Notes: generated by a model not told the origin, from the letters alone. 64,000 bases of DNA from an uncultured Myxococcales bacterium (GCA_965367675.1 CBDUJZ010000005.1:5027-69026); one strand, 5' to 3'. Positions 103 through 15,574 are shown, counted from the stretch's first letter. Numbers and translations are program-made.

Positions 103-1440
103 CTAGCGCGGAACCCAGGCGCTACCCGAGCCAGACACACCGGACAGAGGCAACGGCCGAGCCGCGGCGATATCGAGGAAGAACAGCGCGCGATGCTGCA
201 CGTAGTCCGCAGACTGACCGGCGGTGCTGCCGTCCGACACGGTAGTCGTCGAGTCGCGAATAGTCGGGTTGTAACGAAGGCCCATCGTGAACCAATCGGT
301 CACGCTGTAAGACACGAGCGCCTGCCCGCCGACCAGCGTGTCCTTCCGCTCGCCGTTGAACACGTCCACTTCCGTGCCACCCGACGTCATCGACGAATAG
401 GTGTTCAGGTTGACGTAAGCACCAAGACCCAAGCCCAGCGCGCCCGCGTCGACGCTCGCGTCGGCGTATACGCGGTGGTACGTGATGAAGTTCGAAAGGA
501 CGGCGTCTTCGAAGTTGTGCTCCCAACCGAACCGCAAGCGATTCGTGTCGGACAGATGCACGCCGAACTCGATGTGCGTCAGGTACGTCTTCGCGTCTTC
601 ACCCAGGTCGTAGTTCGCCTGACCGAAACCGCCTGACGCGAGCAGCGAGAGGCGACGCGAGAGGAAGCCCGTAAAACCAGCCGATGCGCGAATCGCGAGC
701 GAGTCGACATTGTCGACCTCCACAGCACCAGACGACGTCACCGACGTCACCGACACACTGTCGTAGCTCAGCGTGTCGACCGCACCCGTGATGAACACGC
801 CCGTCTTCGGGAGGAAGTTCCACTGCAACTCAAGCCGACCGCCGAGGCCAGTACGGTTCAGGCTGTCAAACGAGTCATAGTCCCACAAGCGGTGCTGGAA
901 ACCCATCGCGCCGCTCAGTCCGAGACGCTCCGAGCGACCGTAACCGCCGGGGTGCAGTCCCACTTCGATGTCGAAACGGTTGTGCAGCACGCGGAACGGG
1001 TCACCCGCACGCGAGTTCGGGGTGTTCGTCCAAGACAGGTGATCGGACGGCGTGATCGAGACCACACCGTTGGGGTTCACGCGGAGACCGACCGCGGCTT
1101 CCAAGTCGAGGCCACTTTGGCCGCTCGCATCTTCCTGCAGCAACTGCTCCCAAGCAGCACCGAGATCAGCGAAGAGCTCGAGCGCACGCGGCTCGGGAGT
1201 CGAGATGCCGATGTAGGGGTTGATGCGAATCGTCCCCGACGGCTGCGGATCCTGAGAGGCATCCAAGTACAACGGACTGCTGTCGACGCCCAACTCCAGA
1301 CGAATACCCGGGCGGAGCTGCAGGCTTCCCGCCGCGACCCCGTCCTCAGCATGCGCTGGAGCGGCCACCGTACCCACGCATGCGAGCGCAAGTGATAGCA
1401 ACAGTGTTTGGGGTCCCGTAAAACCCGTGTCCCTTCTCAT
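103..1440 (-). CDS. Outer-membrane beta-barrel protein (putative beta-barrel porin; possibly Wzp/BBP2-like polysaccharide-export type)
   Basis: Signal peptide (APAHA|E); alternating hydrophobic/polar strands rich in Y/W/F/G throughout 445 aa; co-oriented with the motor cluster. Confidence 0.7.
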   Translation of the reverse strand: MRRDTGFTGPQTLLLSLALACVGTVAAPAHAEDGVAAGSLQLRPGIRLELGVDSSPLYLDASQDPQPSGTIRINPYIGISTPEPRALELFADLGAAWEQLLQEDASGQSGLDLEAAVGLRVNPNGVVSITPSDHLSWTNTPNSRAGDPFRVLHNRFDIEVGLHPGGYGRSERLGLSGAMGFQHRLWDYDSFDSLNRTGLGGRLELQWNFLPKTGVFITGAVDTLSYDSVSVTSVTSSGAVEVDNVDSLAIRASAGFTGFLSRRLSLLASGGFGQANYDLGEDAKTYLTHIEFGVHLSDTNRLRFGWEHNFEDAVLSNFITYHRVYADASVDAGALGLGLGAYVNLNTYSSMTSGGTEVDVFNGERKDTLVGGQALVSYSVTDWFTMGLRYNPTIRDSTTTVSDGSTAGQSADYVQHRALFFLDIAAARPLPLSGVSGSGSAWVPR

Positions 1441-1535
1441 GTAAAAATCTGTCTTCCTAACAAGGTTCGGTGTGGCGGCTCGGTATGCCTGAGCTGCCAG
1501 TCCGTCAAGTCATTTTAAGAGTGCCCGAGCGCCCC

Positions 1536-2111
1536 CTAGGGGGTAGCGGTCGAGGGCGATACAGCGACGAAATCCAGGTTGCCGAACCAGCTCGGGAAGA
1601 ACCATGGCATCACTGTGCGTCCCCGAAAGTCGATGTCGCCAACGGGGATGTAGAAGCCGTTCATCGCGAGGACCGTTCCGTCTCCCGCGATACCATTGTC
1701 ACCACCCATGATCGCGTCCGCCTGACGGCGAGACTCACGACACGAGTTGGCCGCGGCAACGATCATGCTGAACCAATGCTCCAGCGTCGCGCGATCCGTC
1801 ACCTGCTTCGAACCACCTTCGGACTGCGCAGCCTTCAGGTTGGCCAGCGCCTCCTCCGCCACGAGCAGTCGACCGTTCATCTGCGTGTAGATGTTGTTCA
1901 GACGCTGGTACGCCGAAGCATCTCCATCCGCCTCTGCCGACACGCGGTACTCCGCGACGACGTCGACAGAGTCCGACATCTCGGCAACGAGCGCTTCGCC
2001 CTGCGTGATCATCTCGGTCAACGAGAGATCGGCGTATTGCGACGCAGTCTGCGCCAACGCAGTGCTGCTCATCAACATGCCGACGAGTGCAATCCACAGC
2101 ATTCGGGTCAT
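1536..2111 (-). CDS. Secreted alpha-helical (coiled-coil) hypothetical protein
   Basis: Start reassigned to ATG 2111 (AGGAG SD upstream, MTRMLWIALVGMLMSSTALA|Q signal peptide); heptad-like helical body, aromatic C-terminal tail. Confidence 0.7.
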   Translation of the reverse strand: MTRMLWIALVGMLMSSTALAQTASQYADLSLTEMITQGEALVAEMSDSVDVVAEYRVSAEADGDASAYQRLNNIYTQMNGRLLVAEEALANLKAAQSEGGSKQVTDRATLEHWFSMIVAAANSCRESRRQADAIMGGDNGIAGDGTVLAMNGFYIPVGDIDFRGRTVMPWFFPSWFGNLDFVAVSPSTATP

Positions 2112-2292
2112 TGTCCATCTCCTGGGTGTTCCCGCGAACGGGAGCGAGCACGGTTGCGACTCAACGGCGCTCAGCATGCAGCAAGCTAGTCGAGGGGCCT
2201 ACCGCTGTCAATCGACGGTAGTCAAAGATCTGGGCCACCCAAGGGCCTCAAAGATCACCCCCGCACCACCAGCTCCCCAACGCTGGCGCGTC

Positions 2293-2330
2293 AAAAACGA
2301 AAGAACCCGCCAATCGGCGGGTTCTTTCGT
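2293..2330 (-). terminator. Rho-independent terminator after the distal aglR copy
   Basis: ACGAAAGAACCCGCC-AATC-GGCGGGTTCTTTCGT 15-bp stem followed by a T-run on the minus strand. Confidence 0.85.
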
Positions 2331-2346
2331 CCGAAGGAAGTACGAG

Positions 2347-2988
2347 CTATTCGCCCGCGCCGCCCTTCGAGTGCGCCACCAGCAAGTTCTCGAGCTTCAC
2401 CGAGTACTGGTCGATCTCTTCCACGATGCGCTTTGAGATTCCCGAAAGGAACAGGTGCGCGAGCATGGTCGGGATGGCGACGACGAGGCCGAACGCCGTG
2501 GTGTTCATCGCGAGCGCGATACCACCAGCGAGAAGACGCTGACGGTCTTCCGGTGCCGCGGTCTCGAGAGCCGCGAAAGCCTCGATAAGACCGATGATGG
2601 TACCGAGGAGTCCGAGAAGCGTTGCGATGTTCGCGAGCGCGAGGAGCGCCGGCGTGCGTCGCGTCACCATCGGGATGACCTCCAAGGTGGCCTCCTCAAT
2701 GGCGTTCTGGATCTGCACTTCACCCTTGTTCGCGCGCGTCAGACCAGCCTTCACTACCTTGGGAAGTGCGGCGGCCGGAGCGGCGTTACAAAGCTTAATC
2801 GCACGATCCACGTTGCCCGCCATGACGAGCTTTTGGATCTGCGCCATGAACGCGTTCGCGTTGATGTTGTACTTGAAGAACAGGAAGATGAACCGCTCGA
2901 TGATGATACCGATCGCCACGATCGACACCACCAAGATCAGGTACATCCAAATACCACCGTTCCGAAATGCGTCTGCGATTGCGCCCAT
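2347..2988 (-). CDS. aglR: MotA/TolQ/ExbB proton-channel protein, AglR-like (distal copy)
   Basis: GGIWMYLI TM1, ATLLGLLGTIIGLI and GIALAMNTTAFGLVVAIP TM2/TM3 motifs; near-identical to 6131..6772. Confidence 0.9.
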   Translation of the reverse strand: MGAIADAFRNGGIWMYLILVVSIVAIGIIIERFIFLFFKYNINANAFMAQIQKLVMAGNVDRAIKLCNAAPAAALPKVVKAGLTRANKGEVQIQNAIEEATLEVIPMVTRRTPALLALANIATLLGLLGTIIGLIEAFAALETAAPEDRQRLLAGGIALAMNTTAFGLVVAIPTMLAHLFLSGISKRIVEEIDQYSVKLENLLVAHSKGGAGE

Positions 2989-3112
2989 AGTCTTTTTCTT
3001 CCGGTCAGAGGCTGATTGGTCCAGCCTGTCTCGTTCAAATGTCTAGCAGCTTCCCAAGGGGTGGGTCGCTGCCTGCTGTGGCTGTACGACTGCATCATGC
3101 AGTCTGCGGAAA

Positions 3113-4540
3113 CTATTCGCTAGGCTCAAGAATATACGGCACCCGTACGGTAGCCGCGCCTCCGGATGGCTCATCAAAGCGCCACCGGCGAACACGTCCT
3201 ACAATACATGTACCCACCGCGTCACCTACCGTGTTCTCCGGCAAGCGCGCATCGGTGACCTGGCCGCCTTGGCCGACGGTGAACTGAATCAGAACGCGGC
3301 CGCTAAGCGACGGATTCTGCGCCAGTCCGCGCTCGTAGCATCGTTGAATGTCGGATTGACGACGACGAAGCACAGAGCGCAAATTGTTGGAATCAAGAGC
3401 GCCCGTACCCGCGGTCTGCGGGCTGCGCGATCGAACCGACGCGACCGCGACGGCCTCACGCTCTTCCGTGCGTTCGGTGGTCGCTGCCTCGGCGACCGTC
3501 GATCCGCGACCGGTGTCTACACCAGCGCGGCCCACTTCGCCTTCGGCGCCGCTGCTCGTACCGAGCCCCGAACGACTGACGATACCACCGGAGCCGGCGT
3601 TCTCGCCGAGCGCGGTTTGGTTCGAGAGTACCTCGTCGGCACGACGATCCGAGAGCGCCGACGTGAATCCCAGCGCAGGACCAGATGCATCGTCCGCGCC
3701 GCCGTAGAACGCCGCGAGTGCGGACTCTTGGCGGACACGCTCTTGCGCCTGCTCACGGACGACGTCTTCTGTACGGGTGTCTTCCTGGCCGGCATCTTCG
3801 TTGCCCGCCTCTTCGACTTCCGGCTCCGCTTGCTCTTCGCCGCTGTCCTCGGGCTCTTCGGCCTCGGTGGGAACGCCGTCGTCAGCGATCTCCGCCGGGA
3901 CGTCATCGATGACCGGCTCCTCGACCTCTTCTTCAGGGGCGAGGATCTGTACGAAGCGGTTCGGGAGTTCGCTGAGGCCGGCCGAGCGCGGGGCAGGAGG
4001 CACCATGTAGACAAGCCACAACACCGACGCGACCTGCACGACGGTGGAGAACACCATCGACAGCAAGAAGCCGCCGCTGAGTCCCATGATCGTCGCTACG
4101 AACAGCAGCAAACCGCCACGCATGTTCGCGGGCAGTTGCGGCAGCACCTTGAGCGGCGGCGGGTTCACAAACTGGAACAAGATGGTGACGTCGCCGAGGG
4201 CGATCTTGCCTCGAGCACGGTCACTGAGCTCGATCGACCAGCCGGCCGACGATTTCTTCGCCTTGCCAGACTGCTTGAGACTCTCGAGGTCGTGCACGCT
4301 GCTTCCCAGCAGCATACGGCCCGTCATCTTATCGGTGAACTGAAGAACGTACTTGCCGCTCTTCAGGTCGAACATCGTAAACGCCGGGGGAAAGGCGTTC
4401 GACGCGATTACGAAGGTGTTCTTGAGCGTCTGTCCCACCGACACGGCTTCCCGCGTGCGGAGCAGTCGCTCTTCGATGATTCGTCCGTTCTGGATGATTC
4501 CCAGGCGGAGAATCTTTTCAACTGGCTGCTTTGTCGCCAT
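3113..4540 (-). CDS. gltG: GltG/PglI-like energy transducer (cytoplasmic N-domain, TM, acidic linker, TonB-C-like AgmX/PglI C-terminal domain)
   Basis: LRLGIIQNGRIIEERL N-terminus; C-terminal IQRCYERGLAQNPSLSGRVLIQFTVG...CIVGRVRRWRF; position next to aglRQS and gltF. Confidence 0.85.
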   Translation of the reverse strand: MATKQPVEKILRLGIIQNGRIIEERLLRTREAVSVGQTLKNTFVIASNAFPPAFTMFDLKSGKYVLQFTDKMTGRMLLGSSVHDLESLKQSGKAKKSSAGWSIELSDRARGKIALGDVTILFQFVNPPPLKVLPQLPANMRGGLLLFVATIMGLSGGFLLSMVFSTVVQVASVLWLVYMVPPAPRSAGLSELPNRFVQILAPEEEVEEPVIDDVPAEIADDGVPTEAEEPEDSGEEQAEPEVEEAGNEDAGQEDTRTEDVVREQAQERVRQESALAAFYGGADDASGPALGFTSALSDRRADEVLSNQTALGENAGSGGIVSRSGLGTSSGAEGEVGRAGVDTGRGSTVAEAATTERTEEREAVAVASVRSRSPQTAGTGALDSNNLRSVLRRRQSDIQRCYERGLAQNPSLSGRVLIQFTVGQGGQVTDARLPENTVGDAVGTCIVGRVRRWRFDEPSGGAATVRVPYILEPSE

Positions 4541-4638
4541 GTGCGTGTTCGCCGAGGTGTGTCGTCGTGATGGCGGTCAGAAGACCGCGCTCCCCTTAGA
4601 CGTTTGGAGTGGGGAGTTCTGACACCACCCTCAAGTCG

Positions 4639-5232
4639 TCAGTTAGCGGCTTGAACGCCGGAACCTTGCGCGCGCTGGAGAATGGCGAACTTGAAGTTCT
4701 GCACACCCGCTGCGCTCGCGGTGATCATGACCTGAGTTAAGATCCGGTACGGCGCTTCCTGGTCGACGATGATCGTCACGACCCGCTCGAAATCACGCTG
4801 CGCCAGGCGAGCCCACTCTTCTTGCTCTTGCACGGTCTCTTCGATCCGCTGCTGGAGCTCGGGGATGATCGCGCTCTCAGCGCTCTGAAGCGCGGAGGCA
4901 TCGATCTGACCTTCGTTAATCGGGATGACCTGCTCGTCCTCTACCATCACCCATTTCTTGGTGATGCTGATGATGAGCATGTCTTCGGGCGCAATCTCCG
5001 ACGTCGAGAACGGAAGTCGAAGGTCATCGCTCTGGTTCACCTGAATCGGCTCCGCGCCGTAGGACTTCAGGAGGAAGACCAGGATGATGACCATCATGTC
5101 CATCATCGAGTTGATATTGAGACTCGGCTCATCGCTCTCACGGTGAGCCTTACCCTTGTTCCGACGCGCTGCTTTCTTGCGGTCGGCGAGGATCTTGTCC
5201 TCGTCCATGATGATGTCTTTTTGGTCGGTCAT
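4639..5232 (-). CDS. aglS: ExbD/TolR family protein, AglS-like
   Basis: LNINSMMDMMVIILVFLLKSY TM with conserved Asp; C-terminal IIVDQEAPYRILTQVMITA ExbD motif. Confidence 0.85.
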   Translation of the reverse strand: MTDQKDIIMDEDKILADRKKAARRNKGKAHRESDEPSLNINSMMDMMVIILVFLLKSYGAEPIQVNQSDDLRLPFSTSEIAPEDMLIISITKKWVMVEDEQVIPINEGQIDASALQSAESAIIPELQQRIEETVQEQEEWARLAQRDFERVVTIIVDQEAPYRILTQVMITASAAGVQNFKFAILQRAQGSGVQAAN

Positions 5233-5268
5233 GCGCGTGCTCTTAATTCGGATACGTTAGGGACGGGC

Positions 5269-6048
5269 TTACGAGCCCGAGCTCGGACGCGGCAGAAGGA
5301 GGACCGGGTCTGGGAACAGCTCCACACGCTCGCCCTCAGGCGTCATGATGTAGAGGGCGTTCTCCAGATCCTCGAGCGTTCCGTTTCCGCCACCCAGCTG
5401 GAACGCCGGGATGCTGGAGGAAGCGGCAGGTACGCCGGGGCTCTGACCTTCGGCGGACAGGAAGAACCGTGCGGTGTCCATCGTCTTGATGAGCACTTCG
5501 AACGGGATCTCCGGGTCTCCGAGGATGCTGATGACAGCGTTGTTCTCTTCACCGAACCGGTCGAACCATTGCGGCTGAAGGCGGATGGCCACCAGCTGGT
5601 TGTACAGGGCCGGGAAGTCGAGCTTCGCGACGAGGGGAGCGTTCGCGTCTACGCCGTCTCGAAGACAGATCGTAGCGGGAATCTCCGCCATATCGTGGGG
5701 GCTCAGCTGACGGGCTTCTTCGCCCGCGGCACCACCACCACCGCCGCCACAGCGGGCGATCGGGGTCGTGAATTGCTGGAACTCCGGAAGGTTCGACTGG
5801 TCACCGACGCGGAAGCCGTCGTCGGAGATATAGACGACCACCTTCGGGACCGGCACTTGCTCTTCTTGCTCCTCGGTGTCCGGCGTATTGGCCTGGGCGT
5901 TCCGGGGGGAGCTGATGTTCACGACGCCCGTCTTCAAGAAGACCGTCGAGAGCAAGAGAAGAGGGATGAGGATCATGACCATGTTCATGATCGGAGCCAG
6001 GTTTAGCTCCTGCTCCTCTTCTGCGAATGAGTGTCTCTTGCGTGCCAT
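5269..6048 (-). CDS. aglQ: ExbD/TolR family protein, AglQ-like
   Basis: Start reassigned to MARKRH (GGAG SD); ELNLAPIMNMVMILIPLLL TM; ILGDPEIPFEVLIKTMDTAR and ELFPDPVL motifs; order R-Q-S. Confidence 0.85.
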   Translation of the reverse strand: MARKRHSFAEEEQELNLAPIMNMVMILIPLLLLSTVFLKTGVVNISSPRNAQANTPDTEEQEEQVPVPKVVVYISDDGFRVGDQSNLPEFQQFTTPIARCGGGGGGAAGEEARQLSPHDMAEIPATICLRDGVDANAPLVAKLDFPALYNQLVAIRLQPQWFDRFGEENNAVISILGDPEIPFEVLIKTMDTARFFLSAEGQSPGVPAASSSIPAFQLGGGNGTLEDLENALYIMTPEGERVELFPDPVLLLPRPSSGS

Positions 6049-6130
6049 GTGGTGGTCTCCAACAGCGCGGGCGCGCACTGCGCGCCCTTACAGTTCAGGT
6101 GTGGGTCACTCGCCGAAGGCGAGAGACGCG

Positions 6131-6772
6131 CTACTCGGCGCTGCCGCCCTTCGAGTGCGCAACCAGAAGATTCTCGAGCTTCACCGAGTACTGGTCGATC
6201 TCTTCGACGATCCGCTTCGAGATACCTGACAGGAACAGGTGCGCGAGCATGGTCGGGATGGCGACGACAAGGCCGAACGCCGTAGTGTTCATAGCGAGCG
6301 CGATACCACCGGCGAGAAGACGCTGACGGTCTTCCGGCGCGGCGGTCTCGAGCGCGGCGAACGCCTCGATAAGACCGATGATGGTACCCAGTAGTCCGAG
6401 CAGCGTTGCGATGTTCGCGAGCGCCAGAAGCGCCGGCGTACGCCGCGTCACCATCGGGATGACTTCCAGGGTCGCTTCCTCGATCGCGTTCTGAATCTGA
6501 ACCTCGCCCTTGTTGGCGCGCGTCAGACCAGCCTTTACGACCTTGGGAAGTGCCGCAGCCGGAGCCGCGTTGCACAACTTAATGGCGCGATCCACGTTGC
6601 CCGCCATGACGAGCTTCTGGATCTGAGCCATGAACGCGTTCGCGTTGATGTTGTACTTGAAGAACAGGAAGATGAACCGCTCAATGATAATGCCGATTGC
6701 TACGATCGACACCACCAGAATCAGGTACATCCAGATACCGCCATTACGAAATGCGTCTGCGATCGCGCCCAT
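6131..6772 (-). CDS. aglR: MotA/TolQ/ExbB proton-channel protein, AglR-like (proximal copy)
   Basis: Start reassigned to MGAIADA (same as the other copy; AAGGAAG SD); same TM motifs; directly upstream of aglQ/aglS. Confidence 0.9.
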   Translation of the reverse strand: MGAIADAFRNGGIWMYLILVVSIVAIGIIIERFIFLFFKYNINANAFMAQIQKLVMAGNVDRAIKLCNAAPAAALPKVVKAGLTRANKGEVQIQNAIEEATLEVIPMVTRRTPALLALANIATLLGLLGTIIGLIEAFAALETAAPEDRQRLLAGGIALAMNTTAFGLVVAIPTMLAHLFLSGISKRIVEEIDQYSVKLENLLVAHSKGGSAE

Positions 6773-7046
6773 TGTTCTGCTTCCTTCGGAGGGTGGTGCC
6801 GGACTGCGCCGACGAGGTCCCATCGAGTCGATGGGGCTTGGAAATTGCGAGGGTGTATCTACTACGCGAGCGGTGCGGTCTCAACAGTTTTGATTTCGAG
6901 CCAAGACCCGCTCGCTCATTGTGTTTGGCGCCACCCAGAGGCGGAACCAGACCGGCTTCTGATCGCACACGATCCTCGGGTTGTCCACCGACATGTGCTT
7001 TTGGGGACTACCCGCCAGCACCGTGGAACCACCCAAGCCGTCTGCA

Positions 7047-7280
7047 TCAGAACGGCAACTCTTCGACCGTCTCGTACAGCGCCGGCAAGAAGCTCGCCTC
7101 AGCGTCGAGCGAGACGTACTCCAGGTTCGACGGGCTGAGGATGTAGAACGCTTCCGGCTTCTCGATCTCACCGCGGACGGTGACTTCGTCGAAGACGTAT
7201 ACGCGATCTTGCGCGGCCACAGTGCTCGTCGTGAGCAAGGCTGCAGCGATAAGGGCGGCGCGGAGCGTTTGCTTTACCAT
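7047..7280 (-). CDS. gltF: CglF/GltF-like small periplasmic gliding-complex protein
   Basis: Signal peptide + FDEVTVRGEIEKPEAFYIL motif and ASFLPALYETVEELPF tail typical of CglF/GltF; follows the gltE-like gene. Confidence 0.85.
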   Translation of the reverse strand: MVKQTLRAALIAAALLTTSTVAAQDRVYVFDEVTVRGEIEKPEAFYILSPSNLEYVSLDAEASFLPALYETVEELPF

Positions 7281-7600
7281 GGTTCATCCCAGCTATCGTC
7301 GGAGCTCGTATCGTCGGCGGGCGCGTCGCCCCAGTCCACGTCGTCGCCGCCGTCACCCCAGGTGTCGTCGCCTTCTTCGCTGGACTCGTCGTCGTCCCAG
7401 GTGTCGTCACCGCCACCGTCGTCGCCCCAGTCTACGTCGCCGCCATCGTCGCCCCAGGTGTCGTCGCCGCCACCTTCATCGCCCCAAGCGTCGTCGCCAC
7501 CGTCATCGCCCCAGGCGTCGCCGCCATCATCGCCCCAAGCGTCGTCTCCTCCGCCGTCGTCGCCCCAAGCGTCGCCCCCGCCATCGCTGGCGAACGGATC
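7274..7600 (-). repeat. Imperfect coding repeat (D/G)n-(A/T/D)-W-G-D-D
   Basis: About 10 units of GTCGTCGCCCCA-like sequence on the plus strand; 11 Trp in a ~105-aa Asp/Gly tail. Confidence 0.9.
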
Positions 7601-8854
7601 CTGTTGGCTCTGCTCTTGGAGGGTCCGCTCGGTGTCGAGCAGGCCTTGGGCTTCGGCGCGGTAGGCCGAGTAGGAGCTTCCGCTCGGGATCGCGCCGACG
7701 GCCGACTGATACGCGTCGAAATACGCCAGCGACTGCTCCAGGCGCTCGATGCGATCCAGGCCGGGCATCTCGGCGTCGAGGTACAATACCGCCAAGTTGA
7801 AGTACGGATCGGCGTAGTTCCGATCCACCTCAAGCGCCTGGTTGAACGCTTCTGCGGCGCCGGTGTAGTTCTGTTGGCCCTTCCGCGCGTTGCCCAGGTT
7901 CAACCACGCCGGAGCGTAGTCGGGAGCGTAGCGGATGGCGTTGTCGAACGACTCTTCCGCGCGGTCGTAGTTGCGAGAGCGCAACCGAACCAAGCCGAGG
8001 TTGTTGTGAGCTTCGGCGTGGTACGGGTCGTTCTGAAGGACCTGCTCGAGGATCGTCTGGGCGCCGGTGAGGTTGTCGTTGGCGATGCGGACTTGTGCGC
8101 GGAGCACTTGGAACTCTGCGCGCGAGTTGTCGCGGCCGAGCGCCTGGTCAACAATGTACTCGGCGAGCGACGCGCGGTCGGTGCGGAGATACGCGGTGGC
8201 CATGGTGAAGAAAACGTCGAGGTTCTCTTCGTCATCGAGCAAGAGCTCGCGGCCCAGTCGGATGACACCTTCGTAGTCTTGCTCGTCGAGCATGACGTAG
8301 AGATTGGCAGCGCGGATCTGCGGCGCGTTGTCCGACGCGGCGAGCTGGCTCTGAACGAGCCGGCTGGCTCCGCTGCGATCTCCGTCTCGCAACCGCATAC
8401 GAACGAGCGCTACGAGCGGAAGTCCGAGGTCGGGTTGCTTGTCGAGCGCCTGCTCGAAGTAGCCTTCGGCGTCGCTGACCTGGCCTTCGCGGTAGGCGAT
8501 CACGCCGAGGTTGTAAGCGGCGTAGCCACCCAACTCCGGATCATCGAGCAGATCGCGGAACCGGTTCTTGGCCCGGTTGAGGTCACCGCTGGCGGCCGCC
8601 GCGACGGCGTCGGCGAGCTCTCCCTCTCCCACAAACGCGCTGGGCGCGATGGGAGTGGCCGAATCGGCGGCGGGCGTCTCGGCCGTATTTGTCGCCGGGG
8701 CGTCGAACGGGGACGGGGTCGTATTGGCCGACTCCACGACCGGGGTCGTCTGGTTCGCGGGCTCGGCGTCCAGGTCTGCCACGCCTTGGTTACACGCTCC
8801 GAGGAGCGTGAAAAGCCCAATGGCGCTCAGCGCGTTGGTGAAACGTCGGTTCAT
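7274..8854 (-). CDS. gltE: GltE/AglT-like TPR lipoprotein with acidic Trp-repeat tail
   Basis: Lipobox LLGA|C; multiple TPRs (AYNLGVI, AHNNLGLV, AWLNLGNA, PYFNLAVLY); between gltD- and gltF-like genes. Confidence 0.8.
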   Translation of the reverse strand: MNRRFTNALSAIGLFTLLGACNQGVADLDAEPANQTTPVVESANTTPSPFDAPATNTAETPAADSATPIAPSAFVGEGELADAVAAAASGDLNRAKNRFRDLLDDPELGGYAAYNLGVIAYREGQVSDAEGYFEQALDKQPDLGLPLVALVRMRLRDGDRSGASRLVQSQLAASDNAPQIRAANLYVMLDEQDYEGVIRLGRELLLDDEENLDVFFTMATAYLRTDRASLAEYIVDQALGRDNSRAEFQVLRAQVRIANDNLTGAQTILEQVLQNDPYHAEAHNNLGLVRLRSRNYDRAEESFDNAIRYAPDYAPAWLNLGNARKGQQNYTGAAEAFNQALEVDRNYADPYFNLAVLYLDAEMPGLDRIERLEQSLAYFDAYQSAVGAIPSGSSYSAYRAEAQGLLDTERTLQEQSQQDPFASDGGGDAWGDDGGGDDAWGDDGGDAWGDDGGDDAWGDEGGGDDTWGDDGGDVDWGDDGGGDDTWDDDESSEEGDDTWGDGGDDVDWGDAPADDTSSDDSWDEPW

Positions 8855-11800
8855 GGGTCAACTCCACCGAACGGGTCGGCGCTATCCGCGGGCACGATCA
8901 TTCCGGCCGGCGGGGCTTCCGGGGTCGGCGGTACGCGGAACCCTGGCGGTGAGAAGATCTGCGTCTCCTCGTATTCGATTGCGGTGCGGAAGACCGGGTA
9001 CTGCGCCCCGCGGTAGCGGTTGAGCTGTGCCGTCATGTCGACCGTGCATTGGTTAGTGACGCCCAACTGCTGCATGATCGGGTAGGCCACTTCCCACGCT
9101 GCGATCGCTTGGTCTTCGTACTGCTGCGCGAAGTCCTCGACCATGAGCACGTAGGCGTCCTCGGCGTCGAAGTCGCCGCCGAAGTCGGGCAGCGGCAACG
9201 CGTACAGAAGGTCGGCCATGACCTGGAACACACGACCTTCCATGTAGAAGGCGCACACGGTCCACTCGGCGGAGCCAAAGTCGACGACCTCGCGGAACTC
9301 CAGCACGAGCGGCTCAAGACCATCGCGGCGGTCCTGCAGGCCTTCTTGCTGCTCACGCACAGACTCGCCGAGCTCGATGTTGTTCCAGTTGGCGAAGGAG
9401 CCCATGGCGCGGTCGTAGATGACCTTGGCCGCGGCGTACTTCGCAGCGATGGACTCCGGCAGCCGCAGCGAGAACTCGGAGACGATGTTGTCGTAGGCCC
9501 GGTTGGCGTCGCGGGTGTCGCCGTCCTCTTCGTAGGCCACCGCCGTGCGGTAGTAGCTGTCGATCACGGCGGCATCGATGTCGATCAGGTCCGACATGCT
9601 GCGGCCGTAGTCGTCACGGAAGTCCTCGAAGATGGTGCGCATCGTGCGGTGATCGCCCATGTCGTCGTACAGCGTCGCTGCGGTGAACATGGCCGATGCC
9701 GCGCGCTCATCGTTCGGGTGCGAGCGTGCCCAGTCCAGGTACGCTTCGGCGGCTTCCCGCTTGCGGCCGACGCTCTCCATGAGGAGTGCGGCATCGAGGA
9801 TCGGGTGCTCCACCAAGTCCGGGTCCGAGAATCCGATGCCGTCCAGGATGAGGAACTCATCGATGGCGCGGTCGAAGTCGAAGAAGCGCTTGGCGTTGAC
9901 GGCGATGCGGACGTGCGCGTCGTCGACGTAGTCGCTGTCGGGGTACTCGGCGATGAGGCGGTCGAACTGCACGATCGCGTCTTCGTACTTCCGGAGCTGT
10001 TGCTCGTAGATGAGGCCGGAGTTGAACAGACCGACGGGGGCGAACTCCTCGTTGTCCGCGTATTCTGCGGCGAGACGTGCGTACTCCTCGGCGGCTTCTT
10101 CGAACTGACCGGCTTCGAACAGCTCTTCGGCGCTCTGGGCGATGATTCCGCCGACCATCATGCGGACGTCGGCGGCCAGCACGGTGCGGGTCTCCGGGTC
10201 GATGCATGCGGAGTAGCGGCTACCGAGCGCTTCTCGGAACGCCACGACGGCGTCCGAATCACGGCGTTGCTGATAGATGTTCAGCATGAAGCCGGCCGCG
10301 TAGCCGCTCTCGGGGGCTTGCGGGTCACAGCGGTCGAGGACGATCAGGAACCGCTCCTCGGCCGCGTCGTAGTTCTTGTAGTCGTAGAACAGCTTGCCGA
10401 CCTGGAAGCCGTAGCGGAACGCGGTCCGCGGGTCGTCTTCCGAGTTCAGGCCCATGGCCAGGTAGCGGTCGATGGCGGCGGCCCATGCGAGCGAGAGCTC
10501 GGGCACCGGTTCGGCGACCGTCGGGGCGCTGCGCGGGGCTTCGGGATCTTCGTCGGGCTCCGCCTCGGCCACGTACTCATTCACGCCGCTGTAGGCAGGC
10601 CATGCGCGGCCCTCCAGTTCGAAGCTGTCGATGGCCTCTTGGAGGGCGTACTCGTACGACTGAATGGACAGTGCGGCGGCCAGCTCTTGGAACTGGTCGT
10701 CGAGCGGGGAGTCGCGCACCACTCCAAATTGGGCAGCGGCCTCCTCGTACCGTGCGGCGAACAGGAGCGCCTGGCCGTGGTACATGCTCATCTCGTACGT
10801 GAGCTCGTCGTCGGGGTACTGCTCGATGAAGTCGGCGTAGATGTTGGCGGCGAACGAGAATTGCTCCTTGCTCTCGGCCAGCAGTCCGTCGTCGCCCATC
10901 GCGAGGGCTTCTTCGCGGAGTTCCTGAGCGTCGTTGTAGTAGCGCGCCGCGGTCTCCACGAGGTTGTCGCGGACAACGCGCTCGGCCTGCGTGATGGCGT
11001 CGGTCTCGCCGAGTCGCTCCATGCAGGAGTACCACTCGGAGCCGGGGCCGAATTGGGTGCTGAGCTCGCGCTGCATCGCGCGCGCTTCGTCGAACGCGCG
11101 CATCTGGCCGAGCGCTTCCACGATCTGGAGTGCACGGTCGAGGTTGGCGGGGTCGCACTCAAAGCGCGCGATGGCGTGTCGGTTGATCTCTACGGAGTAC
11201 TCGAAACGCTGGTCTTCGAGCAGGATGCCGGCGAGTCGGTCGAGGACCTTGCCGGTGTATCCGCGGTCTTCGCCGAGGTAGTTCATCACGCGAGGCATGA
11301 GGAAGTCGGGGTCGCGCTCAGCGTCGAGATCCCAGTCCTCTTCGGAGATGGAGAACGCGAAGTACTGAAGCGCTTCCTCTTCGAGTGCGGCGGCGCTCTC
11401 TTCCTTCTGCTCGTAGTACTCGAGCAGCATGGTGAACTGCTGGATGGCGGGATCGTACTCGCCGAGCAGGTAGTTGGCCCAACCGAGCTTGAAGAGGATC
11501 TTGTCGTACCAGCGGGATTCGCCGTAGCGGAGCGCGGAGTCGTAGGCTTCGCGGGCTTCGACGAACGCGGCCTCTTCGAAGTAGAACTCACCGATGCGCA
11601 GGTAGCCTTCCTGTGCAAAGTCCGACTCGGGGTACCGCGTCACGAGCTCTTGGTAGGCTTGCAGGCCGAGCTCGTACTCGTCCATCTGCTCGTAGCAGAT
11701 GCCGGTGAGGTAGAACGCGCCGTCGAGCTGACGGTAGTCCGGGTAGTTCGCGATGAGTCGGCGGAACAACGAGATGGTGTTCCGGAAGTCCTTCTCGGGC

Positions 11801-12462
11801 GTCTCCGGACGGTCGGGCTCGATGCCGAGTTCGTAGCGCTCTAGCGCGAGTTCGAAGTTCGCGTCGGCCTGGTTGTACTCGTCGACGGACTTCTCGTAGT
11901 GGAGCTCCGCGAGCCTGAAGAGCACGTCAGCGGAGTAGTCCGGGTGATTCGGGAAGCGCTCAAGGAATCGCTCAAAGTCGGCGATCGCTTCGTCGCGCCG
12001 CTCTCGCTCTTCGATGCGCAGCAGCTCGATGTTGTCGTTGTAGAACGCCAGGCGCCGCTCCCGCTCGCGGGAGTATTCCACCTGGACGATCTCTTGGATC
12101 GTACGCTGGTAGTCGGCGATCTCCGCTTCGTAGAGACGGAGCGCCTCTTCGAACTGGCTGAACGCGCCGCGTTGCTGCTCCGGGAGCGCAGGCGGAGGGA
12201 TCAGGCCATCGGGGCGAGGCGTTGTCGCGGTGTTGCTCGCTGCCGCAGGTGCGGTGGTTTCAGCGGCGTCTGCTTCGGCGTCAGCGGCCTCCTCCTCGGC
12301 AGGTGCAGCGTCATCTGCGGCTGCTGGTTCGGCGGTGGCGTCGGGTTGGACGGCCTCCGTCGGCTCAACGCCGCTCCCTTCGGGCTCAGACTGCGCGAAG
12401 GCCGGCGCAGCGAGCACGAGAAACAGGGCAATTTTCGGCAGGCGAATCAGGCCCATGGTCAC
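8851..12462 (-). CDS. gltD: GltD/AgmU-like large TPR protein
   Basis: 1203 aa, signal peptide, many TPR/YfiO-like repeats (DVLFRLAELHYE, EGYLRIGEFYFE, KILFKLGWANY); precedes gltE/gltF-like genes. Confidence 0.75.
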   Translation of the reverse strand: MTMGLIRLPKIALFLVLAAPAFAQSEPEGSGVEPTEAVQPDATAEPAAADDAAPAEEEAADAEADAAETTAPAAASNTATTPRPDGLIPPPALPEQQRGAFSQFEEALRLYEAEIADYQRTIQEIVQVEYSRERERRLAFYNDNIELLRIEERERRDEAIADFERFLERFPNHPDYSADVLFRLAELHYEKSVDEYNQADANFELALERYELGIEPDRPETPEKDFRNTISLFRRLIANYPDYRQLDGAFYLTGICYEQMDEYELGLQAYQELVTRYPESDFAQEGYLRIGEFYFEEAAFVEAREAYDSALRYGESRWYDKILFKLGWANYLLGEYDPAIQQFTMLLEYYEQKEESAAALEEEALQYFAFSISEEDWDLDAERDPDFLMPRVMNYLGEDRGYTGKVLDRLAGILLEDQRFEYSVEINRHAIARFECDPANLDRALQIVEALGQMRAFDEARAMQRELSTQFGPGSEWYSCMERLGETDAITQAERVVRDNLVETAARYYNDAQELREEALAMGDDGLLAESKEQFSFAANIYADFIEQYPDDELTYEMSMYHGQALLFAARYEEAAAQFGVVRDSPLDDQFQELAAALSIQSYEYALQEAIDSFELEGRAWPAYSGVNEYVAEAEPDEDPEAPRSAPTVAEPVPELSLAWAAAIDRYLAMGLNSEDDPRTAFRYGFQVGKLFYDYKNYDAAEERFLIVLDRCDPQAPESGYAAGFMLNIYQQRRDSDAVVAFREALGSRYSACIDPETRTVLAADVRMMVGGIIAQSAEELFEAGQFEEAAEEYARLAAEYADNEEFAPVGLFNSGLIYEQQLRKYEDAIVQFDRLIAEYPDSDYVDDAHVRIAVNAKRFFDFDRAIDEFLILDGIGFSDPDLVEHPILDAALLMESVGRKREAAEAYLDWARSHPNDERAASAMFTAATLYDDMGDHRTMRTIFEDFRDDYGRSMSDLIDIDAAVIDSYYRTAVAYEEDGDTRDANRAYDNIVSEFSLRLPESIAAKYAAAKVIYDRAMGSFANWNNIELGESVREQQEGLQDRRDGLEPLVLEFREVVDFGSAEWTVCAFYMEGRVFQVMADLLYALPLPDFGGDFDAEDAYVLMVEDFAQQYEDQAIAAWEVAYPIMQQLGVTNQCTVDMTAQLNRYRGAQYPVFRTAIEYEETQIFSPPGFRVPPTPEAPPAGMIVPADSADPFGGVDP

Positions 12463-14816
12463 TCGTCCTCCAAGAGCTCTTCAAAGTCGGCGTCCAGCTC
12501 ACGAATGGACTGGTTCCGCTCTTCGAAGAGGTTCTCGATGGTGTGTGACAGCACTTCTTTCTGCCGCCACGCCACGTCGATGATTCCCAAGTTCGCCCGG
12601 AGCGTCAGCTCGGAGAACCGGTAGTAGATGTCTTCGAACGCCGCGAACGCCACGGTTCCGGCGGTCGCGCGGGCTTCCGCTTCGGCGAGCGGCAGCGACG
12701 CTTGGTACTGCTCCACGTTCGCGCGCTCACGGGCCAGGAGGCCACGCATGTCGGCGGTCTGTTCGGCGAGCAACTGATCGAGTTCCAGGTAGAGGCTCTC
12801 GCAGTCGCGGTCGATCGCCATGAGCTCACCGATCGTGGGGTCCACGTTGGTGAGCGCGCTTGGATTCGAGGCGTTGGCGCGACGCGCAGCCAGGAACCGC
12901 TCTTCCGCGCCGATGGCGGTGAAGAACTCTGCGCGGCTCTGGCGCTCGGCCGAACCGACACCGTCGGACACGCCGACTTCGACGAGTCGAATGTTCAGTT
13001 CACGCCGCAGCGCCAACGTCTCGGCGCGGGCCGTGTTCAGTCGGCGGGACTCCGCGTCGAGCGACGAGCGCATGTTGCGGAGGTCTGCGCGCGGCGCGGC
13101 GCCGGCACGGTCGATGTAGATCTCGCGGAGGGCTTCGAGGTCCTCGGCTTCGGCGTTCACCATGAGTTCGGCGCGGTGGGTCTCGAGGATGAGCCGGCCG
13201 ATCTCATCGGTCACGGAGCGCTCGCGCTCGTTGAGCTCCGCGAAGGTTCGCGGCTGGTCCGACAGGCGGGCCTGAATGGCGAGCCGGCGTCGGCGCAGGG
13301 TCTCGTATTGCGAGGCGTCCGACTGTGCCATTCCGGGCACGACCGCGGTGGCTTCCGCGTCGACGAGGGCCCCCATCAGGTCGGTGACCTCGACTTGAAT
13401 CGCGTTGGCGCGCGCCCAGCTGTCCCGAATGGTCGGGAACGCGTTGAGGCGGCCACCGCGGTTCAGCACGGCGTCGAGCTGCTCGATCATCAAGGCGCTC
13501 TCGTCGATCTCGGTACGCAGGACTTCGACGTCCTGAATCGCCATGAGCGCGCGGTCGAGCTGCGGGTCCGACTCGAACCAGGGCTGCGCGGCGACCGGCA
13601 GGCGAAGCGAGCCGGCTTCAGGGTTCACGATGGCGTCGAAGAACGCATCCGGGTCGTCATGCTCGGCGCGAACGGCGCGCAGCTCTTGTTCGACTGGCAG
13701 GTACTGCGCGTTGGCGGTCTCGAACTGCTCGACGGCCTCGTCGTAGCGCTCCATGCGCAGCAACAGGTCTCCGCGGAGGAGCTGCGCTTGGGCCTGGAAG
13801 CGAGAGTCCTGGTCGGCGACGATCGTGAGGATCTCGAGGTTGTTGAGCGCCGTCTCGAAGTACTGATCACGCAGGGTGCGCTGGTCGGTCTCCGCTCCCT
13901 GTCGAATCTGCGTCCACGCGATTTCGTAGAGCGCCGCAGTGTAGTGCGGCGACTGGCGCGGGACGAGGATGTAGGCGTCGATGGCCTCAAGCCACGCGCT
14001 GTTCTCGTAGTGGATTCGGCCCTGCGCGAGGCGCGAGAGTTCGCGTAAATCGACGACGGTGTCGGAGTCTTCGGCGCTGGGCTCACCGAGCCGCTCGAGC
14101 ACGCCGGTAAACTCGGCGTAGGCGGGCTCCAGTTGGTCCATGCGGGCCATGGCGACGCCGGTGAAGTACCGGGCGAGCTCGTACACGTCGGCGCTCGGAC
14201 GCACGGCGCCGAACGCGTTGACGGCGTCGGCGTAGCGTCCTTGGAAGTACAGCGCTTTACCGCGCACGTACGACACATCGTCGTCCATGGCGGTACCGGC
14301 GCGGCGCTCTAGGTCGCGGTACAGGCGCTCAAGCTCGTCAAAGCGTCCCATGGCGACAGCGATCTCGATGCGGCGGCGTGCGGCGTCGAGGCTGTGCGTA
14401 GGGTCTTCGGCGAGGCGCTCGTAGTAGTGCCCTGCCATGAGCAGGTCGCGCTCTAGGAACAGGCTCTCGGCGAGCATGTACACGGCCTCGGCGTAGCCAC
14501 CGTTGGCGCGGTGTCGGTCGTCTTCGACGAGCGGCAGCAGCGCCTGGATGACGGCGTCGTAGGACTCGTAGAAAAAGAGATATCGTGCGTCCACGAAGGC
14601 GGACGCGAACGAGTACTCCAGCGCGATGCGCTCCGGCTGTCCGATCTGGGGTCGGATTTGGGAGAGTTGGCCACGCAGGGTGCGCACTTGCTCGCCGATC
14701 GCGGTGACCTCAGCGGCGGTCCCTTGGGCATCCGCGGGCTGCGCCCCAACGAGCATTGTCGCTGCGGCCAAAGCCGCAAGCGCCGCTTTGGCGGCGGCTC
14801 TAGGCAGGGTCAGCAT
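12459..14816 (-). CDS. Exported TPR / coiled-coil protein of the Glt-like cluster
   Basis: Signal peptide (PADA|Q), TPRs (AVYMLAESLF, YVRGKALY, ALYEIAWT), long coiled-coil C-terminal half; translationally coupled to neighbours. Confidence 0.8.
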   Translation of the reverse strand: MLTLPRAAAKAALAALAAATMLVGAQPADAQGTAAEVTAIGEQVRTLRGQLSQIRPQIGQPERIALEYSFASAFVDARYLFFYESYDAVIQALLPLVEDDRHRANGGYAEAVYMLAESLFLERDLLMAGHYYERLAEDPTHSLDAARRRIEIAVAMGRFDELERLYRDLERRAGTAMDDDVSYVRGKALYFQGRYADAVNAFGAVRPSADVYELARYFTGVAMARMDQLEPAYAEFTGVLERLGEPSAEDSDTVVDLRELSRLAQGRIHYENSAWLEAIDAYILVPRQSPHYTAALYEIAWTQIRQGAETDQRTLRDQYFETALNNLEILTIVADQDSRFQAQAQLLRGDLLLRMERYDEAVEQFETANAQYLPVEQELRAVRAEHDDPDAFFDAIVNPEAGSLRLPVAAQPWFESDPQLDRALMAIQDVEVLRTEIDESALMIEQLDAVLNRGGRLNAFPTIRDSWARANAIQVEVTDLMGALVDAEATAVVPGMAQSDASQYETLRRRRLAIQARLSDQPRTFAELNERERSVTDEIGRLILETHRAELMVNAEAEDLEALREIYIDRAGAAPRADLRNMRSSLDAESRRLNTARAETLALRRELNIRLVEVGVSDGVGSAERQSRAEFFTAIGAEERFLAARRANASNPSALTNVDPTIGELMAIDRDCESLYLELDQLLAEQTADMRGLLARERANVEQYQASLPLAEAEARATAGTVAFAAFEDIYYRFSELTLRANLGIIDVAWRQKEVLSHTIENLFEERNQSIRELDADFEELLEDE

Positions 14817-15574
14817 CAGGACTCCTCGTCCCCGCTCGTCAGCTCGCTGTCGTCGCCGATGGTGTCGGTGATGGAGACGTCGAAGCGCACGTCCGGACGG
14901 TCTTCGAGGGCGCGCGAGGCGCCGCCGTGGTCGTACAAGATCACGTCGACGTCGGCGGTCTTGCCATCTTCGACGGTGAACGAGTGCGAGGACACCAGCG
15001 AGAAGGTGTAACCGTTCATGTAGGAGAACATGCCGTGGTCGTTGCCGACGATCTCGGCCTGCACCACGATGGTGTGGGGTCCGGCGAGCACGGGCGACTC
15101 GTACACATCGACGCGGTTGCGCTCGTTGAGCGCGGGCTCATCGGCGGCGGTCGTGGCGTACACTTGGTCGCCGTCGATGGCGTAGCTGATACGCGCGAGG
15201 TCGAAGAGACCGCCGAGCTCGTTGATGTGCGTGACGGCGATGCGGGAGCCGCCGATGCCTTCTTGCATCAGCTGGTGCCAGAGCATGCGGAGTCGCGCTT
15301 TGGAAGCGAAGACGCTCTCCTTGAGCTCATTGAGGCGGTCCTCAAGCTCGTGGAGTTGCAGGTCGTAGTCCGCGGTGGGCGCGACCATGGGGGCGGCTGG
15401 CGCCTCTGCGGTCACGGCGGGTGCTGGTGCCGCTTCCGTCGCGGGCGCTGCGGCCTCGACCGCTTCGCCAGTGGCTTCAAATACGTCGGCTGCGTCGCCC
15501 GCCGATTGCGCATTGGCAGTTCCGGCGATCAACAGCGCGACCAAGCTCCCCGTCAAGAGCAGACCGTTCCTCAT
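14816..15574 (-). CDS. Exported protein (Ala/Pro linker, coiled coil, beta-sandwich); first gene of the Glt-like operon
   Basis: Signal peptide (ANA|Q); LQLHELEDRLNELKESVFASKARL coiled coil; family seen ahead of TPR genes in myxobacteria, often mis-annotated as dihydrolipoamide acetyltransferase. Confidence 0.75.
   Translation of the reverse strand: MRNGLLLTGSLVALLIAGTANAQSAGDAADVFEATGEAVEAAAPATEAAPAPAVTAEAPAAPMVAPTADYDLQLHELEDRLNELKESVFASKARLRMLWHQLMQEGIGGSRIAVTHINELGGLFDLARISYAIDGDQVYATTAADEPALNERNRVDVYESPVLAGPHTIVVQAEIVGNDHGMFSYMNGYTFSLVSSHSFTVEDGKTADVDVILYDHGGASRALEDRPDVRFDVSITDTIGDDSELTSGDEES

Follow-up and report, generated by a model that had tools for sequence, protein, structure and literature searches.

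Two AglR-like genes with near-identical products and divergent silent sites in one putative Agl/Glt-type operon of an uncultured Myxococcales bacterium

We analysed a 64,000-nucleotide stretch of a draft genome from an uncultured Myxococcales bacterium (GCA_965367675.1, CBDUJZ010000005.1:5027-69026; hereafter the window), which carries a cluster of genes resembling the Agl/Glt system of Myxococcus xanthus. The cluster contains two AglR-like genes of the MotA/TolQ/ExbB type, referred to here as copy a and copy b (Table 1), whose products are identical at all but two residues and whose coding sequences differ silently along their whole length. The pair is a lineage-specific variant of a known system. 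Both the motor system itself and the maintenance of identical duplicates by purifying selection are known; what appears to be new is the presence of a second putative ring-subunit gene within one Agl/Glt-type operon, together with a constraint that, by our codon models, tightened measurably after the duplication. We found no published report of such a second gene in an Agl/Glt-type operon, although the supplements of one central source (PMC3169522) lay outside this search and may list others. The best explanation as a whole, which we advance tentatively and would not yet call probable, is that copy a arose as an in-operon duplicate, that the two products assemble with each other, and that paralog interference keeps them identical.

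Two genes encoding almost the same protein

A base-by-base comparison of copies a and b revealed 66 differences in 642 bases (89.7% identity), distributed over the first, second, and third codon positions as 5, 2, and 59, respectively. These affect 62 codons, 60 of which differ synonymously; the two non-synonymous changes (A211S and G212A) both fall within the last three residues. The count confirms exactly what an earlier note on this DNA had estimated by eye, namely 211 of 213 identical residues and about 60 silent differences. Differences are present in each of the eleven 20-codon bins, and the G+C content at third codon positions (GC3) is 0.78-0.79 in both copies. The earlier note had also placed both open reading frames (ORFs) at the right coordinates; they lie, however, on the minus strand, the plus-strand frames being interrupted by stops. 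For copy b, an alternative start at position 6823, 17 codons earlier, would formally allow a protein of 230 residues, but the start methionine corresponding to position 6772 is used in all 29 orthologues that we extracted.

The similarity between the copies ends at the start codon on one side and about 20 nt 3' of the stop codon on the other. Beyond these limits, local alignments of the flanks score no better than shuffled sequences (the upstream score was equalled by 174 of 300 shuffles, the downstream score by 92 of 300). The flanks are thus unrelated, as previously described, except for the roughly 20 nt by which the blastn match extends past the stop codon.

As the genome is a draft of 303 contigs (5.57 Mb, 95% complete, 0.37% contamination), we considered an artefact of assembly or binning, by which alleles of two strains would have been stitched into one contig. 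At least 94% of the sampled words of positions 2100-7300 are present in five sediment-metagenome runs from two studies, and the per-run contigs of four runs (X1, X3, X4, and X5) were compared with positions 1400-7900. In X1 and in X3, a single contig of 3332 bases (2869-6200) extends from inside copy a across the GltG-like gene and both ExbD-like genes to a point within copy b. The outer joins are covered by separate contigs, which link copy a at its 3' end with the sequence downstream (1400-2416) and copy b at its 5' end with the sequence upstream (6653-7900). The same joins recur in shorter pieces in X4; the X5 pieces are identical to those of X4 and may represent the same data, and one of the runs may be the source of the deposited assembly. 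The contig breaks coincide with the three stretches common to copies a and b (35, 38, and 56 bases), which is what genuine repeats would produce in a 31-mer graph. In addition, the X4/X5 contig follows the copy-b version at 2422-2446, a segment enclosed by the 35-base and 38-base stretches; this is a path switch in the graph and no proof of conversion.

The fragmented state of the draft and this one change from copy-a to copy-b letters are the points that speak for an artefact. Against it, the per-run contigs of X1, X3, and X4 tie the copy-specific variants of each copy to the unique sequence on either side of it, a single contig spans the distance from copy a to copy b in two of these runs, read depth is alike across copies and flanks, and contamination is low. 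We therefore reject an artefact, which we regard as highly improbable, and the view of the earlier note that the pair is genuine is upheld by three distinct assemblies.

A duplication confined to one lineage

Copy b lies between the GltE-like and small ORF genes on one side and two ExbD-like genes on the other, which is the ancestral position of the gene. In all six relatives examined (five other genera of the family and class), this position holds a single AglR-like orthologue, and the order of the cluster is the same. No AglR-like gene follows gltG in any of the five relatives' loci that reach past gltG, the sixth stopping at a contig end. Because the single gene of the relatives sits at the copy-b position and none follows gltG, copy a is the derived insertion; it lengthens the interval from gltG to the next gene by about 0.9 kb. 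In a genome of the same genus (G001), gltG is followed directly by the 213-residue and 445-residue neighbours that lie downstream of copy a in the window. The G001 contig ends inside gltG, its copy-b region is unassembled, and its best AglR-like match has 29% identity; as this genome is 84% complete and as divergent at the locus as other genera, it does little to date the duplication.

A broader survey found the duplication only here. The class is represented by 113 genomes, this one among them; 94 yield a match at E <= 1e-60, a single one in 93 genomes and two in this genome only. The same duplication was found neither in 40 relatives nor in the 112 other class genomes. Likewise, of 160 loci (the best 80 each from the collections genome_contigs and metagenome_contigs), 159 have a match, and none of these contains a near-identical second copy, and a second MotA/ExbB gene occurs within the flanks of only two of the 159, at 31-34% identity. 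The nearest loci listed come from metagenome-assembled genomes of Myxococcales, Bradymonadales, Myxococcota, and Deltaproteobacteria. In a nucleotide tree, copies a and b are sisters. Gene order and tree together show what is in all likelihood a lineage-specific duplication: a segment with hardly any sequence besides the aglR-like ORF was copied to the 3' end of the same operon, between the GltG-like gene and a strong terminator-like hairpin. The earlier note had named absence of the second copy from relatives as a finding that would tell against its interpretation; the second copy is indeed absent there, and the pattern is that of a lineage-specific gain, not of decay.

Tandem MotA/ExbB pairs were observed in four genomes of another family of the class (G017:C100:86569-87852, G021:C379:24895-26178, G036:C227:17238-18521, and G039:C54:26750-28027), each member being about 40-44% identical to the AglR-like protein. 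These genomes have no close AglR-like orthologue, and the loci may belong to a different system with two ring genes.

Silent divergence, constraint, and proposed co-assembly

The number of synonymous substitutions per synonymous site (dS) between copies a and b is 0.52 by the Nei-Gojobori method (NG86) and 0.74 by maximum likelihood (ML), and the corresponding non-synonymous value (dN) is 0.006-0.011. Between copy b and its counterpart in the closest other genus (G008), dS is 0.62 (NG86) or 1.08 (ML) and dN 0.032-0.038. We also determined the silent mismatch, defined as the fraction of positions with identical residues at which the codons differ, which amounts to 0.296 between the copies, 0.342 between copy b and G008, 0.415 between copy a and G008, and 0.43-0.52 for farther orthologues; independent draws from the codon usage of the cluster give about 0.48, which corresponds to saturation. 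The copies have thus gone about 60% of the way to silent saturation and stand nearly at an inter-genus distance, in agreement with the earlier conclusion that the duplication is not very recent. At the protein level, by comparison, G008 differs from this genome at nine core and three tail residues, whereas copies a and b differ at no core and two tail residues.

A silent divergence near the inter-genus value would also suit a xenologous origin of copy a, with an unsampled close relative as donor and horizontal transfer to the site behind gltG. The lack of flank similarity beyond about 20 nt agrees with such an origin, and horizontal transfer of core-complex genes has been reported (Luciano et al, 2011; PMC3169522). 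An orthologue at such a silent distance would, however, be expected to differ in protein sequence, whereas every core residue is common to the two copies and the closest other genus differs at nine. The sister relationship of the copies in the tree is a further argument against transfer, as is the absence of any donor-like sequence of more than 94% protein identity outside this genome among the best 80 loci of each contig collection. Codon usage is native and similar in the two genes (values of an index akin to the codon adaptation index, CAI, are 0.64 and 0.605); at the 60 silent differences, the commoner codon belongs to copy a in 32 cases. Neither foreign codon usage nor decay of copy a is seen, its ORF being intact. 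A transfer is distinctly improbable in our judgement; it concerns the origin only, and the same strict selection would still be required afterwards.

To quantify this selection, we fitted branch models with our own script (the Goldman-Yang codon model GY94-F3x4; 212 codons; copies a and b, G008, G002, and G004; two topologies). The ratio of dN to dS (omega) is 0.009 on the two copy branches and 0.039-0.042 elsewhere (twice the log-likelihood difference, 2dlnL, 8.70 and 7.84; p = 0.003 and 0.005). The strong purifying selection on both copies that the earlier note had proposed is therefore borne out, and it is significantly stronger than on the orthologous branches. On the stem branch leading to the pair, omega is ordinary (0.042 with all codons, 0.027 with the core alone), and the drop thus follows the duplication. 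When the last four aligned codons are removed, leaving a core of 208 codons, omega on the copy branches is 0 and 2dlnL rises to 17.85. In a separate comparison within the genome, three other duplicates in a plausible frame gave omega values of 0.16-0.31 at a dS of 0.31-0.42, and the script used there gave 0.03 for this pair, which is the only one of its kind in the genome; pairs with an omega above 1, probably read in the wrong frame, were left out.

Several other local or dispersed duplicates of 0.9-1.2 kb with 84-94% identity were noted in this genome (C28:12-2728, C127:2957-5071, and C134/C162); those readable in a plausible frame have an ordinary omega of 0.29-0.31.

Gene duplicates usually relax after duplication. 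The duplicate of a putative ring subunit described here behaves in the opposite way, with an omega about four-fold lower than that of the orthologues, which fits a mutual constraint between co-assembling paralogues. Bacterial duplicates of the tufA/tufB type likewise comprise two copies of a highly constrained gene, but gene conversion keeps those copies alike in DNA. Copies a and b, by contrast, are 10% apart in DNA, and no conversion tract was seen between them; the longest identical run, 18 codons, is not unusual, being reached in 1963 of 20,000 permutations. We thus reject gene conversion and concerted evolution. A closer parallel is offered by the histone H4 and ubiquitin families, in which protein identity results from purifying selection, not from concerted evolution, and silent sites diverge freely. 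Those are large eukaryotic families, whereas the present case is one bacterial in-operon pair with a measured drop in omega relative to its orthologues.

In the explanation that we favour, both copies would be transcribed with the operon, and their products would mix in one pentameric AglR ring that encloses a single AglQ-like/AglS-like pair. A substitution in either gene would then give mismatched subunit interfaces, a situation never met by a homopentamer encoded by a single gene. Owing to this mismatch, substitutions that are tolerated in orthologues would be removed (paralog interference), and protein identity would be kept without gene conversion. The co-assembly argument builds on the ring-plus-axle architecture of the TolQ5-TolR2 and ExbB5-ExbD2 complexes (PDB 8odt, 6ye4, and 5sv0). 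Both copies belong to the same Pfam family as the ring subunits of these complexes, matching MotA/ExbB (PF01618) with 87 bits over residues 76-193, above the Pfam gathering threshold of 22.9, and among solved structures, TolQ chains of pentameric complexes come closest in sequence (E = 8e-7, aligned residues 110-184). Their scores with the equivalog models, by contrast, lie far below the cut-offs: 57.8 bits against 221 for TolQ (TIGR02796), 27.9 against 206.2 for ExbB (TIGR02797), and 45.3 against 135.35 for ExbB2. Unlike in the Tol and Exb complexes, moreover, the axle here would be a heterodimer. At residues 156-161 of both copies, the TolQ motif GIAEAL aligns with GIALAM, the glutamate of the TolQ helix being replaced by leucine. 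Paralog interference has been described as strengthening negative selection on heteromerising paralogs (bioRxiv 10.1101/2025.06.13.659495) and so predicts stronger negative selection on co-assembling duplicates; it is framed there for other organisms and for loss-of-function mutations, and its application to a 5:2-type motor ring is our own extension.

The benefit that fixed the extra copy would most simply be a higher supply of the five-fold subunit, as a local solution and not as a requirement of the motor. An AglR5QS-GltG arrangement (5:1:1) has been published as an AlphaFold model (PMC11761067), and a review from 2022 described the in vivo stoichiometry as unknown (PMC9389320). The earlier note had taken the second gene as a dosage solution for a 5:1:1 stator. 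Since 93 of the 94 matching class genomes make do with one aglR-like gene in the same gene set, a 5:1:1 stator does not in general need a second one; the dosage reading is possible for this lineage, but it is not a solution of the family as a whole.

A number of points weigh against co-assembly and paralog interference as the explanation. The duplication is carried by one draft genome only, 93 of the 94 matching class genomes being single-copy, and for the phase of the silent variants on either side of the three shared stretches we depend on the deposited assembly, at a place where the contig of one run switches copies. The cut that defines the 208-codon core was made after seeing where the changes lie. 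Omega on the background branches may be inflated, as these are long and in part saturated, and the codon model is our own script applied to five sequences, not PAML or HyPhy. Furthermore, silent change is greater in copy a than in copy b, with 37 versus 19 unique sites when G008 serves as outgroup (chi2 5.79) and with model branch lengths of 0.37-0.40 versus 0.08-0.11. The size of the effect depends on silent sites as a clock: should those of copy a evolve fast, dS would overstate the age of the duplication, and less excess constraint would remain. With the rate of copy b as the clock, about 3-5 core changes would be expected by hand arithmetic, against none seen.

These last observations bear on another explanation, that of a young duplicate with fast silent sites mainly in copy a, for which protein identity would need no special constraint. 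The acceleration could stem from selection for repeat divergence, since recombination between the copies would delete the AglQ-like, AglS-like, and GltG-like genes, or from different mRNA constraints at the new site. Consistent with it, silent change in copy a is about two to four times that in copy b, with an excess in each of the four variant blocks; the two copies form direct repeats on either side of three of the motor's genes; and their longest shared runs measure only 56, 38, and 35 bases. Yet the silent branch of copy b by itself already measures 0.08-0.11, and the asymmetry is significant with only one of five outgroups, chi2 being just 0.18-1.65 with the four farther ones. The differences are spaced no more evenly than they would be at random, codon quality is equal in the two copies, giving no sign of relaxed codon selection in copy a, and there is no closer genome among those searched by which time could be calibrated. 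On balance, we consider a young duplicate unlikely, if far from negligible.

The pair offers the Agl/Glt and Tol/Exb field a natural case for asking how the subunit supply of a 5:1:1 complex is set and how much heterogeneity a pentameric ring tolerates. A bolder version, which we offer as a minority view, treats the pair as a natural experiment on subunit mixing in a rotary ion-driven motor: one rotating pentamer would be fed by two genes, selection would forbid residue differences between them (core omega of 0), and divergence of the DNA would be permitted or even favoured, since it would prevent recombination between the direct repeats and the loss of the axle and transducer genes that lie between them. 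If true, this would show in nature that duplicating the gene of a homo-oligomer tightens its constraint instead of loosening it, and it would give a handle on the asymmetry that a 5:2-type ring can bear.

The surrounding cluster and its expression context

The features of the cluster are listed in Table 1. Directly after copy b follow two genes of the ExbD family, consistent with the single AglQ-like and single AglS-like genes assumed in the earlier note; the first probably starts at the ATG at position 6048. The same order, a MotA/TolQ-type gene followed by two distinct TolR/ExbD-type genes, is found in the loci of the five relatives that reach both, that of the sixth ending inside the first ExbD-like gene. 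In ExbD and TolR, an aspartate in the membrane helix is the proton-binding residue. The AglS-position protein retains this aspartate (LNINSMMDMMVIIL), as do all five relatives giving a match, whereas the AglQ-position protein has an asparagine at the corresponding site (LNLAPIMNMVMIL), kept in all five matched relatives.

Table 1. Features of the AglR-like cluster and its neighbours, in order of position in the window
Feature	Coordinates	Strand	Description
Downstream neighbour, putative beta-barrel	103..1440	minus	445 aa; syntenic in 5/5 loci reaching that far and in G001
Downstream neighbour	1536..2177	minus	213 aa; no family match
Intrinsic-terminator-like hairpin	2290..2332	minus	17-bp stem and U run, 15 nt past the copy a stop
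Copy a, AglR-like MotA/TolQ/ExbB gene	2347..2988	minus	213 aa; tail ...KGGAGE; last gene of the operon
Spacer between GltG-like gene and copy a	2989..3112	minus	124 nt, structured
GltG-like TonB-type transducer	3113..4540	minus	475 aa; N-terminal part of the model absent
ExbD/TolR-like gene, AglS position	4639..5232	minus	197 aa; PF02472 53.6 bits
ExbD/TolR-like gene, AglQ position	5269..6078	minus	269 aa; PF02472 32.4 bits (cut-off 25.4); long linker
Copy b, AglR-like gene	6131..6772	minus	213 aa; tail ...KGGSAE
Small ORF, GltF-like position	7047..7280	minus	77 aa; between GltE-like gene and copy b
GltE-like TPR protein	7274..8854	minus	526 aa; NF033758 GltE 90.8 bits (below cut-off 225); TPR families
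Large TPR_6/YbgF-like protein, GltD-like position	8851..12462	minus	1203 aa; TPR_6 117 bits; TIGR02795 122 bits
GltC-like protein	12459..14816	minus	785 aa; NF033756 GltC 50.9 bits (below cut-off 450)
First conserved gene of the cluster	14816..15574	minus	252 aa; syntenic in 6/6 relatives; no family match

The GltG-like protein matches the GltG model NF033760 with 126 bits, below the cut-off of 650, over profile positions 224-648, and the AgmX/PglI C-terminal domain NF033768 with 87.5 bits, above the cut-off of 40. None of the NCBIfam equivalog models of Glt type (GltG, GltE, and GltC) reaches its cut-off. The name AglR-like, which relies on synteny with these Glt-like genes, is nonetheless a fair one. 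The name aglR proper, which would mean orthology to the M. xanthus gliding gene as opposed to paralogues of the M2 or G4 type, is at most a putative label here. Profile searches gave no family match for the small ORF, whose 3' half aligns at the DNA level with the locus of the closest relative (L035), the stop codon being in common. The 445-residue neighbour has matches only below cut-off, to PF10082 (beta-barrel porin 2; 16.8 bits) and EpsL.

The published core complex comprises gltC, gltD, gltE, and gltG together with aglR, aglQ, and aglS; outside gliding myxobacteria, it was described as a single operon-like unit with a function as yet unknown (Luciano et al, 2011; PMC3169522). M. xanthus additionally has paralogous clusters designated G3, G4, G5, and M2. 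The window resembles this system in that a MotA/TolQ/ExbB gene precedes two ExbD/TolR-like genes that differ from each other, a long linker being present in the first, and, less certainly, in their linkage to genes for a TonB-like GltG-type protein, GltC/E-like proteins, and large TPR proteins in one co-directional cluster. It differs in having two ring-subunit genes in one operon, where the published systems have one per cluster, in its Glt-type scores below cut-off and a GltG-like protein devoid of the N-terminal part of the model, and in the asparagine that takes the place of the membrane aspartate in the AglQ-position protein.

The position of copy a behind a spacer brings up a division of labour by regulation, in which copy a would be expressed from its own promoter or by conditional read-through of the spacer and would serve under other conditions or with other ExbD/TonB-like partners, each copy then being indispensable in its own right. 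The 124-nt spacer contains several hairpins and folds better than every one of 200 shuffles (-41.6 kcal/mol, z = -3.57), and it could modulate read-through into copy a; three further, distant MotA/ExbB genes with 29-33% identity are also present in the genome. A consensus scan found no sigma-70-like promoter in the spacer, a weak test for this phylum. Independent use alone, moreover, would not forbid residue divergence, of which there is none in the core. We hold such a division of labour to be improbable.

Shortly past copy a lies the terminator-like hairpin. This element was not listed by the consensus scan, and the downstream folds of three relatives are no better than those of shuffled sequences; in the window, the hairpin folds at -34.5 kcal/mol (z = -5.19), and none of 200 shuffles is as stable.

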